Source of the DNA: Escherichia coli
Lineage (GTDB): Bacteria; Pseudomonadota; Gammaproteobacteria; Enterobacterales; Enterobacteriaceae
DNA: 64,000 bases
Reading direction: 5' to 3' (one strand)
Assembly: GCF_001677475.2 (NCBI RefSeq)
Contig: NZ_CP015229.1
In this document: piece after piece, positions 1,379 to 57,091 of the stretch
Numbering within the stretch: the first letter of the stretch is position 1
Layout of the letters: each line of letters opens with the position of its first letter
The notes under the pieces: model-generated
What the model was told of the DNA's origin: nothing
Databases searched by the model: none
What the model saw: only the letters and a program-made list of their open reading frames with translations
Program-made: the position numbers and the translations under genes

Positions 1379-1525
1379 GGTCATTCTCCTTTACGGTGAT
1401 AACCGTCGCGTAAGCAAAAAATTGCCCCATTTTTTTGGATTCCTCAGCGACAACAACTGTCGATTTTTAGTAAATATCTATCCGGTACGAAGCCCGGCCT
1501 CTTGGTATGAATGATTGGTTTGAAG

Positions 1526-1562
1526 CAAAAAATAACCGACGCTGATGAAACGTCGGTTTTTA
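1526..1562 (-). terminator. Rho-independent terminator hairpin (accgacg...cgtcggt) flanked by A and T runs, downstream of yeeY
   Basis: Inverted repeat with flanking A6/T5 runs read directly from sequence. Confidence 0.5.
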
Positions 1563-1644
1563 GTCATTTTTTGACAGCGGCGCATTGTGCCTAAATAGGG
1601 GGGAAATGACAAGAGAATGAGAGGCTTGTCATAATAATTTTTCT

Positions 1645-4312: not shown

Positions 4313-4363
4313 ATGACACGCGTTCAATTTAAACACCACCATCATCACCATCATCCTGACTAG
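4313..4363 (+). CDS. hisL: his operon leader peptide HisL (MTRVQFKHHHHHHHPD, 7 consecutive His codons)
   Basis: 16-codon ORF with His7 run read directly; too short for ORF track. Confidence 0.95.
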   Translation: MTRVQFKHHHHHHHPD

Positions 4364-4423
4364 TCTTTCAGGCGATGTGTGCTGGAAGACATTCAGATCT
4401 TCCAGTGGTGCATGAACGCATGA

Positions 4424-4460
4424 GAAAGCCCCCGGAAGATCATCTTCCGGGGGCTTTTTT
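4424..4460 (+). terminator. his attenuator terminator (gcccccggaag...cttccgggggc followed by T6)
   Basis: Perfect GC-rich hairpin plus T-run between hisL and hisG. Confidence 0.9.
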
Positions 4461-4508
4461 ATTGCGCGATTGATAACGGTTCAGACAGGTTTAAAGAGGA
4501 ATAACAAA

Positions 4509-30573: not shown

Positions 30574-30612
30574 CACGCTACCGCCCCTGGCTTTACAGCT
30601 ACCAGAGCACTG
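30574..30612 (-). promoter_or_regulatory. JUMPstart element containing ops (GGCGGTAGCGTG) upstream of the O-antigen operon
   Basis: Minus-strand read: cagtgctctggtagctgtaaagccaggggcggtagcgtg, matching the remembered 39-bp JUMPstart consensus. Confidence 0.9.
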
Positions 30613-30870
30613 CATGCATGCCTACGATGTGACGAGCGTTACCCACTCGCGCTAAACCCGAAAAATTCAAACACTAATTGTCTTACCAATCCGCTCTGGA
30701 AACAAGGAAAATCCTGGAAAACTTTGACTAAAATCCTATTGCTAACTCGTTGTTATCCTGATTGTTTATATAAAACAACGGCAGGAATATTCGCAACAAA
30801 TTACTTTCGCCACGAATCTTCACTGCCGTTATAATTTTCTTATCAACCGTTACATTCGGTCAGATTTTCA

Positions 30871-35902: not shown

Positions 35903-36090
35903 GCCTGATGCGACGCTGGCGCGTCTTATCAGGCCTACAAGACCCGAGCACAGAACCGTAGGCCGGATAAGGCGTTCACGCCGCATCCGGCATTCAGTGC
36001 CTGATGCGACGCTGACGCGTCTTATCAGGCCTACAGGTCCCGAGCACAGAACCGTAGGACGGATAAGGCGTTTTACGCCGCATCCGGCAA
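35903..36090. repeat. BIME/REP cluster: two tandem ~90-bp units (gcctgatgcgacgctg[gc/ac]gcgtcttatcaggcctaca...ccgtagg.cggataaggcg...ccgcatccggca)
   Basis: Two near-identical palindromic units read directly; ORF-track ORFs here are spurious. Confidence 0.9.
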
Positions 36091-40497: not shown

Positions 40498-40587
40498 GTC
40501 GTTACCCTTTTTCAGGCAATAGTTGGCCCTGACCGAAGCGGCCAATTTTGTTTTTGTCGTTATTTACATCGCGGTTCGGCATTCATT

Positions 40588-53710: not shown

Positions 53711-54850
53711 TTACCAGTTATGAATGTCGCTGGCTGTATCCGTCATGTAACGGACACCGCTAATAGTTGGCAGCAACTGATTGATCAGACGGTTCCAGCG
53801 GGAAACCGGGGCGGTGGTGACATACACCACGTCATAAGGTTGCAGGCGGAATTCTGTCGCCATCACCAGCGACGTCGCATCGGACATATCCAGCTGGTAG
53901 ATATTGGCAATCTTGCCGTTACGCCCGCCCTCGCCTTTCAGCGGACGAATGACAAAGATGCCGCTGGCGTTGGAGGTGGTCATGTCGATACCTTCGGCAT
54001 TGCCCAGAGCTTCAGTCAGGGTCATGCCGCTAAAGTCCATTTTCAGGGTGCTCTGTTTCTTCACTTCACCCATCACAAATACTTTCAGATCATCATTACG
54101 CGGCACGTAGAGAATATCGCCGGGATAAAGCAGTCGGTTCTGATTGAGGTCGCCGTTTTGCATCAGCGCCTGCAAAGAAATGCGTTCTTCACGACCATTG
54201 TGTGTTAGCACCACGTTGCGCCAGTCAGCGGTGTCGGTCAGGCCACCTGCGGCGTTGATGGCATCGAGAATGGTCAGTGGCACGTTGGTGATCGCCTGTT
54301 GACCGGATTTATTCACCTGACCGGAGATATAGGCCTTTTGCGAGCGGAAGGCGGCGATATTAACGTCCACCTGCGGGTCAGCGATGTACGTCGCTAAGCG
54401 CCCGGTAATATCACTGCGGATTTCAGCGAGCGTTTTCCCCACGACGTGAACCTTGCCGATATACGGGTAGAACATAGTGCCGTCAGGCTGTACCCAGTTG
54501 CCGGTGTCGCTGGAGCTGCGGTACTGACCGGCTGGCGTGGTGAGTTCCGGGTGATCCCAGACGGTGACATTAAGAACGTCCCCCGGCCCGACGCGATACT
54601 GGTAATTCGCGATCTCACTTTCCAGCGTCATATTGGGGCGCGCTACATTCGGGCGTGGGCGTAATTGGTCAATCAGGCGCGGGGTCAGCGGATAAACATT
54701 CACCATTTTGTCGAGATCGAAATCAGCGTCCTGCTGTTTGATGACGTCTTTCCCCATCGTCGACATATTGCTGCCCGGAAGTACTGTGCAACCGCTTATC
54801 AAGGTTACTGACACCAATAATGGCATCAATTTCATTTTGGATTTCATCAT
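53711..54850 (-). CDS. wza: Outer-membrane polysaccharide export lipoprotein Wza
   Basis: 379 aa with lipoprotein signal (LISGCTV); synteny. Confidence 0.95.
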
Positions 54851-55028
54851 TGTTTATTTATCACTTTGGCAGAGTAATTATCCTGTGCACTATTAATAGC
54901 AATGTCGCCATGCACATTTACCTTGCAGTTAATTGAATAAAAATTTAACTGGCATCAGTCCTAAAAAAATTGATTTCATCCGCAGGCTATTGACAGAATA
55001 ATTCAGACTGGTCTTTCAGGCATCCAGA

Positions 55029-55066
55029 CACGCTACCGCCCCTGGCTTTTAGCTACCAATACACTG
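55029..55066 (-). promoter_or_regulatory. JUMPstart/ops element in the long 5' leader of the colanic acid operon
   Basis: Minus-strand read: cagtgtattggtagctaaaagccaggggcggtagcgtg (ops GGCGGTAGCGTG). Confidence 0.85.
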
Positions 55067-55507
55067 ATTTAGCTTAATTTTTAAAACCCTCTCAACATAC
55101 AGTCGTTGATGAGAAAGGGTTATTGCGGAAATTAACTTCCGAATATAAGGTGACATTATGGTAATTGAATATTGGCTCTCCAATAATGCAGGAGGAAGTG
55201 TTACAGCTAACGGAATAGCAGGCAAGGTAACAATTCGGCAATTGGCTATTTTTAAGAATTATATTAAGTGTCATTCAATATGGTTTTTAGGAGTTTCTTT
55301 AGGTTGACAATATTTAATATAGTGTCTCCACATGCGATATTTCTTAAATAATGTTTTATTATTACCACTTTTAATTCAGGGATAATGTGAGGTTATTACC
55401 CTCAAATAATATGAGATAAATAGTGCTGCAACATTGCATTTTTGCCCCGATTTATCCATGATCGAATTGTGACATTTGTCATACAACGAATAGGTTTTGT
55501 ACTTACT

Positions 55508-57091
55508 ATGGAATGGATTGCCGATCCGTCTATCTGGGCCGGGTTAATCACGCTGATTGTGATCGAACTGGTCCTCGGCATTGATAACCTGGTCTTTATT
55601 GCCATCCTCGCCGAAAAACTACCGCCGAAGCAGCGCGACCGCGCACGGGTTACCGGGCTGTTGCTGGCGATGTTAATGCGCCTGTTACTGCTGGCGTCAA
55701 TCTCCTGGCTGGTCACCCTGACACAACCGCTATTCAGCTTCCGCTCGTTTACCTTTAGCGCCCGCGATTTAATCATGCTGTTTGGTGGTTTCTTCCTGCT
55801 GTTCAAAGCCACGATGGAGCTGAACGAACGGCTGGAAGGGAAAGACAGCAATAACCCCACGCAACGCAAAGGTGCGAAGTTCTGGGGGGTGGTGACACAA
55901 ATTGTGGTACTGGACGCCATCTTCTCACTCGACTCAGTGATTACCGCCGTCGGGATGGTCGACCATTTACTGGTCATGATGGCCGCCGTTGTTATCGCTA
56001 TTAGCCTGATGTTGATGGCAAGCAAGCCGTTAACCCAGTTCGTTAACAGTCACCCGACCATCGTTATTCTCTGCTTAAGCTTCCTGTTGATGATTGGCTT
56101 TAGCCTGGTGGCGGAAGGTTTCGGCTTCGTCATTCCGAAAGGCTACCTGTACGCTGCCATTGGTTTCTCGGTGATGATCGAGGCGCTCAATCAGTTGGCT
56201 ATCTTTAACCGGCGACGTTTTCTTTCCGCTAACCAGACGCTGCGCCAGCGGACTACCGAAGCGGTAATGCGCCTGCTTAGCGGGCAAAAAGAAGATGCGG
56301 AACTGGACGCCGAAACCGCGTCCATGCTGGTGGATCATGGTAACCAGCAGATCTTTAATCCGCAGGAACGGCGGATGATTGAGCGGGTACTTAATCTTAA
56401 CCAGCGTACCGTCAGCAGCATTATGACGTCGCGCCACGATATTGAGCATATCGATCTCAACGCGCCGGAAGAAGAAATCCGCCAGTTGCTGGAGCGAAAT
56501 CAGCATACGCGGCTGGTGGTTACCGACGGTGATGACGCAGAAGATTTGCTCGGTGTTGTTCACGTTATCGACCTGCTACAACAGTCTCTGCGCGGCGAAC
56601 CGCTCAACCTGCGGGTGTTGATTCGCCAGCCGCTGGTGTTCCCGGAAACCTTGCCGTTGTTACCTGCCCTGGAGCAGTTCCGTAATGCCCGCACGCACTT
56701 TGCTTTTGTGGTGGATGAGTTTGGTTCAGTGGAAGGGATTGTGACATTAAGTGACGTCACTGAAACCATTGCCGGTAACTTACCGAACGAAGTGGAAGAG
56801 ATCGACGCCCGCCATGATATTCAGAAGAATGCGGACGGTTCCTGGACGGCGAATGGTCATATGCCGCTGGAGGATCTGGTGCAATATGTGCCGCTACCGC
56901 TGGATGAAAAACGTGAATATCACACCATTGCCGGGCTGTTGATGGAATATTTACAGCGTATTCCAAAACCTGGCGAAGAAGTTCAGGTGGGGGATTATTT
57001 GCTTAAAACGTTGCAGGTGGAAAGCCATCGCGTGCAGAAGGTGCAGATTATTCCACTGCGTAAGGATAGCGAGATGGAGTACGAGGTGTGA
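55508..57091 (+). CDS. yegH: Inner-membrane TerC-family/CBS/CorC-domain protein YegH (start at [12 protein letters not shown])
   Basis: TerC-like TM region followed by CBS pair and CorC_HlyC domain in ORF translation; synteny. Confidence 0.9.

Follow-up and report, generated by a model that had tools for sequence, protein, structure and literature searches.

The window, a stretch of 64,000 nucleotides of Escherichia coli contig NZ_CP015229.1, contains the colanic-acid (cps/wca) gene cluster and the divergently transcribed gene yegH (Table 1). With wza ending at 54850 and yegH starting at 55508, positions 54851-55507 are exactly the divergent spacer between the two, and both the ORF list and the RefSeq annotation give it a length of 657 bp, against the roughly 650 bp of a preliminary description of this DNA. 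The spacer is known to control the colanic-acid capsule operon of E. coli, and for that reason we consider the region an ordinary one whose biology is already known. The capsule affects mucoidy, biofilm formation, desiccation tolerance and phage resistance, and its activation by Rcs, its silencing by H-NS and the action of RfaH at JUMPstart/ops have been textbook material since the 1990s.

At least 80% of the length of the spacer is matched in 4818 of 5426 complete E. coli genomes. Its sequence identity is 99.8% with the spacer of ATCC 11775 and 98.5% with the 658-bp spacer of K-12, whose cps (wza) promoter and leader were reportedly studied by Stout in 1996 (J Bacteriol 178:4273, a study cited in PMC9976346 and PMC2478693), with primer extension. 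The locus is the same in this strain and K-12, with identical boxes, promoter hexamers and ops. The two spacers are separated by ten substitutions or indels. The distal leader, which is not conserved, holds nine of them and the tenth lies just upstream of the -35; the alignment places nine differences within 55046-55239. Apart from the JUMPstart loop, the elements described here are untouched by them. The only change within the JUMPstart element is in the loop, which has A4 in place of the A5 of K-12 (one fewer A), and after the leader hairpin this strain has UUUU where K-12 has UGUG.

A scan with YegH, taking one genome per species, gave 80 loci, of which 68, from about 25 genera, have wza and yegH as divergent neighbours, separated in all but 6 of the 68 by 643-740 bp. 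Among the 120 best matches listed by a search with the YegH protein, none is less than 83% identical to the query, and those that carry a name are nearly all from Enterobacteriaceae. Footprint alignment and promoter scoring used 65 spacers, and the conservation of the boxes was counted in 64 other Enterobacteriaceae species. The footprint resolves, in the direction of wza, six discrete conserved blocks (Table 1) and a stretch devoid of conservation at 55185-55070. The distances among the upstream blocks are 38, 16, 34-36, 30-31 and 17 bp and are held within 1 bp in nearly all species. G+C is only 25-33% in the upstream region (55200-55400; activating region 55250-55350). On the opposite side a further footprint block holds a putative yegH promoter, for which the phylogenetic promoter score is weak; yegH would thereby have a small promoter of its own in the last ~75 bp before its ATG.

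Table 1. Features of the wza-yegH spacer and other elements of the window (positions are those of the window)
Feature	Positions	Strand	Sequence or basis
STnc240	1525-1599		Rfam match above gathering score
His leader	4339-4462		Rfam match above gathering score
naRNA4	35961-36031		Rfam match above gathering score
algC RNA motif, within the colanic-acid cluster	40502-40551	-	Rfam match above gathering score
wza CDS, first gene of the colanic-acid (cps/wca) operon	53711-54850	-	ORF list; annotated wza in ATCC 11775 and K-12
Proximal wza leader, ops to ATG	54851-55028	-	Primary sequence highly conserved (footprint, 65 sequences)
ops, exact 12-mer on the non-template strand	55029-55040	-	GGCGGTAGCGTG; presumed RfaH recruitment and pause site
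JUMPstart element (Rfam RF01707)	55029-55066	-	cmscan match to the full-length model
Distal leader, variable	55067-55188	-	Low conservation; Escherichia-specific hairpin and most K-12 differences
Predicted core cps promoter	55197-55225	-	Weight matrix; -35 TTGCCT 55225-55220, 17 bp, TG 55205-55204, -10 AACACT 55202-55197
Conserved blocks 5 and 6	JUMPstart; most of the last 180 nt before the wza ATG	-	Footprint
Conserved block 4, around the predicted promoter	55232-55186	-	Footprint
Conserved block 3, element of the preliminary description	55268-55249	-	CTTAATATAATTCTTAAAAA
Conserved block 2	55310-55284	-	TTGTCAAC..TAAAGAAACTCCTAAAA
Conserved block 1	55346-55333	-	TAAGAAATATCGCA; TAGGAAATATCGCA in most other genera
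Box 2, centre near -70.5	55253-55266	-	TAATATAATTCTTA on the minus strand, TAAGAATTATATTA on the plus strand; one Rcs-type half-site TTCTTA, then A-tract
Box 1, centre near -105.5	55288-55301	-	TAAAGAAACTCCTA; conserved TTGTCAA at 55304-55310
Box 3, centre near -150.5	55333-55346	-	TAAGAAATATCGCA; top consensus score in the spacer
Putative yegH promoter	55434-55481	+	TTGCAT 55434-55439, 17 bp, CATGAT 55457-55462; conserved footprint block
Inverted repeat, conserved, beside the putative yegH promoter	55470-55481	+	TGACATTTGTCA
yegH (TerC family / CBS / CorC protein)	55508-57091	+	Transcription directed away from wza

Core promoter, JUMPstart and wza leader

We applied a sigma-70 weight matrix at every position of the 65 spacers. 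The top match in this spacer, TTGCCT, 17 bp and TGtAACACT, is also the sole position that scores consistently over all 65 sequences, with a mean of 6.7 bits compared to 1.8 for the next. The -10 reads AACAAT in most other genera, and the distance from CTTGCC to TAGCTG, which reflects the length of the promoter spacer, is 17 bases in 63 of the 64 spacers that have both motifs. The expectation of the preliminary description that the spacer holds the cps promoter is thus supported by a predicted sigma-70 promoter at 55225-55197. A simple consensus scan missed this position because the -10 matches at only 3 of 6 positions; the sole promoter match returned by that scan, TGGAGA-16-CATAAT at 55182-55155, sits in non-conserved sequence and was rejected. 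The literature describes one cps promoter only, which lies upstream of wza and has an RcsAB box (PMC2478693). RegulonDB, as quoted in a passage of PMC9764084, gives two promoters for the operon and assigns one to sigma-E; inspection of the spacer by eye for the sigma-E motif GGAACTT-N16-TCTGA found none that was convincing. The 47-bp block around the predicted promoter (55186-55232, minus strand) is wholly conserved, including the promoter spacer GCTATTnnGTTAGCTG, and so exceeds what a promoter needs; it also contains a 9-mer, TAGCTGTAA, that is shared with the Rfam JUMPstart consensus.

From this promoter we predict that transcription starts near 55189-55190 and yields a leader of about 339 nt, in line with the long wza leader proposed earlier. 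A start at 55189 would place the JUMPstart element at about +124 to +161, and the centres of three upstream boxes at the distances given in Table 1. The Rfam JUMPstart model matches the minus strand with 57.9 bits (gathering score 35, E=2.9e-12) over model positions 1-38 of 38, and its coordinates are identical to those at which the preliminary description had placed a cps-oriented JUMPstart with a perfect ops. The ops lies 178 nt upstream of the wza ATG, on the wza-sense strand and downstream of the predicted start. With at most one mismatch the ops 12-mer occurs twice in the 64 kb, where 0.16 occurrences are expected. The other copy, at 30574-30585, has its own JUMPstart match (30574-30612, minus strand) and falls in the gap between galF and rmlB, so the element upstream of wza was correctly called the second in the window.

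Nothing material sets this element apart from known JUMPstart/ops-RfaH antitermination elements (RF01707; Hobbs and Reeves 1994), with which it has in common the full-length match, the perfect ops, the location on the non-template strand and a place in the leader of a long polysaccharide operon. The wca operon has been reported to be under JUMPstart-RfaH control (PMC9976346). In E. coli CFT073 the wza promoter is covered and silenced by H-NS, and an RfaH ChIP signal is found at the wza ops when hns and stpA are lacking (PMC9765446). Two related sequences lie elsewhere in the window. About 170 bp upstream of the galF-rmlB JUMPstart, TGCGAATATTCCTG (30782-30795, minus strand) agrees with the RcsAB consensus at 11 of 14 positions and lacks two of the strongly conserved ones. 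The ops core 8-mer GGCGGTAG occurs at 55619-55626 on the minus strand, inside yegH and antisense to the gene; it is kept in Escherichia and Salmonella arizonae loci, and is most likely incidental to the coding sequence.

The two parts of the leader on either side of the JUMPstart element are constrained very differently (Table 1). Downstream, the distance from ops to ATG is held at 188-199 nt across species, and the search of this stretch for conserved RNA structure revealed no covariation. Most of its 178 nt, for instance TTATTCTGTCAATAG, TTTTTAGGACTGATGCCAGTTA and GCACAGGATAATTACTCTGCCAAAGTGATAAATAA on the minus strand, are nearly invariant across about 25 genera, and an IS1 insertion within the stretch has been found to enhance a colanic-acid phenotype (PMC8117528). 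Upstream, the distance from TAGCTG to ops, which spans the distal leader, ranges from 156 to 193 nt between species. Just upstream of the JUMPstart, positions 55085-55121 (minus strand) can form a hairpin of -14.5 kcal/mol (z=-3.0 in E. coli), followed by UUUUAAAAAUU in this strain and by UGUGAAAAAUU in K-12. We considered this hairpin as a terminator or attenuator and rejected it: the median z is about -0.3 in other genera and K-12 has no U-run. Its conservation does not extend beyond Escherichia, which makes a role as a general attenuator unlikely.

It is very improbable that the spacer encodes a small protein, for which there are two candidates, a 60-aa ORF at 55092-55274 (minus strand) and a 49-aa ORF at 55158-55307 (plus strand). 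The latter is annotated by PGAP as a 'hypothetical protein' (WP_162829205.1) in many RefSeq E. coli genomes, and AAGGTG stands upstream of its ATG; however, K-12 has it shortened to 27 aa, and none of the seven other spacers checked (two Escherichia, an E. coli E69 locus and other genera) has its start context. The 60-aa ORF was already judged probably not a gene in the preliminary description, and indeed neither E. whittamii nor another Escherichia locus has its ATG. Both ORFs moreover cross blocks that appear to be regulatory at the DNA level as well as the non-conserved leader. The PGAP entry is therefore probably a spurious call and can be flagged as such in RefSeq. The 49-aa ORF overlaps the boxes of the cps promoter.

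Rcs-type boxes upstream of the promoter

Against TaAGaatatTCctA, which is reportedly the RcsAB box consensus of Wehland and Bernhard from 2000, nothing in the spacer matches within 3 mismatches, and no single box scores above chance in the spacer scan. The four best matches to the consensus are exactly the three conserved upstream blocks. One of them had been noticed before, as the preliminary description had tentatively suggested an RcsAB box near 55243-55256. The sequence in question, TAAGAATTATATTA, actually lies 10 bases away, at 55253-55266 (box 2), and is a conserved element. The agreement of box 2 with TaAGaatatTCctA at 10 of 14 positions, including 5 of the 6 strongly conserved ones, is at chance level: a top match at least this good is found in composition-matched random 657-bp spacers with P=0.49, so that the consensus match of TAAGAATTATATTA alone carries no weight.

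What sets box 2 apart is conservation. It is nearly invariant in the 64 species (TAATATTAWTCTTA on the minus strand), at fixed distances from the neighbouring blocks, and positions 1-3, 7, 8, 10, 11, 13 and 14 each have a single base in at least 63 of them. One half, TAAGAA (TTCTTA on the other strand), fits the consensus and the other, ATATTA/TAATAT, does not; this second half reads TAATA/TATTA in 60 of the 64 species, leaving box 2 with one recognisable half-site in place of two. The 14 bp look functional, and we take box 2 to be a conserved element that is probably not the main activator site, and most likely an auxiliary RcsB/RcsAB contact rather than a full RcsAB box.

In box 1 the right half TCCTA and the AAAA are close to invariant among the 64 species, and the left half varies and lacks G4. 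When the E. coli rcsA box is compared together with its flanking bases, nothing in the spacer matches it better than 55278-55306, which is in register with box 1 (19/29, P about 0.04). The sequence used for this comparison, TAAGGATTATCCGA, which we take to be the rcsA box of E. coli, occurs 251-264 bp upstream of the rcsA gene. From box 1 to the predicted wza -10 is 99 bp, the same distance as the approximately 100 bp from the full box to the putative -10 of galF in Klebsiella and Raoultella. Box 3 is the sole 14-mer of the spacer with 6 of 6 strongly conserved positions and two half-sites, its score alone having P=0.13; it becomes TAGGAAATATCGCA in most other genera, and several genera, Kluyvera and Trabulsiella among them, have lost it. 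The 8-mer ATATCGCA is found in the promoter region of E. coli rcsA (locus L083, 485-495), some 70 bp downstream of the RcsAB box there, and it recurs as the right half of box 3 (55333-55340).

Published descriptions give the RcsAB consensus as TaAGaa followed by tatTCctA, with the right half assigned to RcsB (PMC3950696), and the RcsB box as TN(G/A)GAN4TC(T/C)NA (PMC7913699). In common with the RcsAB boxes of rcsA (TAAGGATTATCCGA) and galF (TAAGATTATTCTCA), all three wza boxes precede an Rcs-dependent promoter and contain an identically oriented TC(C/T/G)(T/C)A half-site, and an A-tract follows boxes 1 and 2 as it follows the rcsA box. Unlike the rcsA and galF boxes, boxes 1 and 2 have one good half-site each, and only box 3 has both.

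Which of the three is the published wza RcsAB box has to be judged from these comparisons. A full-text literature search with 12- to 14-mers of all three gave no relevant paper, and the papers found to mention the RcsAB box print the consensus only. An operator whose loss abolishes the capsule is expected to be universally conserved, which favours boxes 1 and 2 over box 3. When the rcsA match, the galF distance and the conservation are set against the full consensus of box 3 alone, box 1 would have about an even chance of being the published site, and boxes 2 and 3 each about half of that. That box 2 is itself the site characterised in K-12 is thus unlikely, even though its conservation is the strongest of the three, its minus strand reads TAATATTATTCTTA in most genera, identical at 12 of 14 positions to the K. 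pneumoniae galF box TAAGATTATTCTCA, and its centre near -70 from the predicted start is the usual position of a class I activator. It offers one half-site only, with G4 or C11 wrong on either strand, where the verified rcsA and galF boxes have two halves, and the rcsA box, flanks included, finds its best alignment at 55288-55301. All three boxes may be contacted. In Erwinia the RcsAB site of amsG reportedly lies at -555 to -533.

A different reading would make box 2 part of a core promoter, with TAATAT (55266-55261) serving as -10 and transcription, dependent on an activator, starting near 55254; box 1 would then abut the -35 position, an arrangement known for the RcsB boxes at rprA and osmC, and TTGCCT/AACACT would be a second promoter or an element of the leader. 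The pattern of variation in TAATAT is indeed that of a -10, as T1, A2 and T6 are nearly invariant and positions 4 and 5 variable. RcsB sites are usually found immediately upstream of the -35 (PMC5651002), and the passage of PMC9764084 that quotes RegulonDB lists two promoters for the operon. However, TAATAT has neither a -35 nor a TG extension, its phylogenetic promoter score is 0.8 bits compared to 6.7 for the downstream promoter, and a -10 element does not account for the invariant TTCTTAAAA that follows it. We regard this reading as quite improbable, and retain box 2 as a probable auxiliary contact and 55225-55197 as the predicted core promoter.

Proposed control of wza, and galF in Klebsiella and Raoultella

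We judge it likely that the spacer regulates the colanic-acid (cps/wca) operon on the minus strand, and that it works in the following way. The AT-rich upstream activating region at 55250-55350 would present three Rcs-type boxes at fixed spacing, of which box 2, a conserved single half-site, would be the one proximal to the promoter. Phosphorylated RcsB together with RcsA would bind this array and activate the weak sigma-70 promoter at 55225-55197, and this binding would probably also lift silencing by H-NS. Transcription from near 55189 would then produce the leader of about 339 nt, in which RNA polymerase would pause at ops, where the exposed non-template strand could recruit RfaH. RfaH in turn would keep the polymerase elongating through the operon of more than 20 kb.

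A more tentative proposal, which we consider possible but would not yet favour, is that the colanic-acid promoter uses a rigid array of about 100 bp, composed of one full and two half-site boxes, rather than a single RcsAB box. The box centres, near -150, -105 and -70, keep their spacing within 1 bp across about 25 Enterobacteriaceae genera. If the proposal is true, RcsA and RcsB might form a higher-order nucleoprotein complex that displaces H-NS. What the analysis adds to the known biology is modest, namely a comparative map of the bases constrained across the family, of the likely core promoter and of three Rcs-like boxes rather than one, and this map could serve as a guide for promoter engineering or mutagenesis.

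A related arrangement is found in Klebsiella and Raoultella, where yegH faces galF instead of wza (eight loci). The galF (K-antigen) promoter thus occupies the same chromosomal position opposite yegH as that of wza. It has a full RcsAB box, TAAGATTATTCTCA in K. pneumoniae (reportedly also the galF box of Wehland and Bernhard) and TAAGAATTTTCTTA in relatives; a putative -10 (AAACAT/AACCGT), with a -35-like TTGACG, follows about 100 bp further downstream. Further TTCT half-sites lie between the box and the -10, and TATTCT and TAAGAAT half-sites are present as well. It differs from the wza promoter in its short leader, in having no JUMPstart before galF, in its clean pseudo-palindromic box and in a different arrangement of the middle elements. 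The design of box, half-sites and the TTGACG...AAACAT pair parallels that of the wza promoter.
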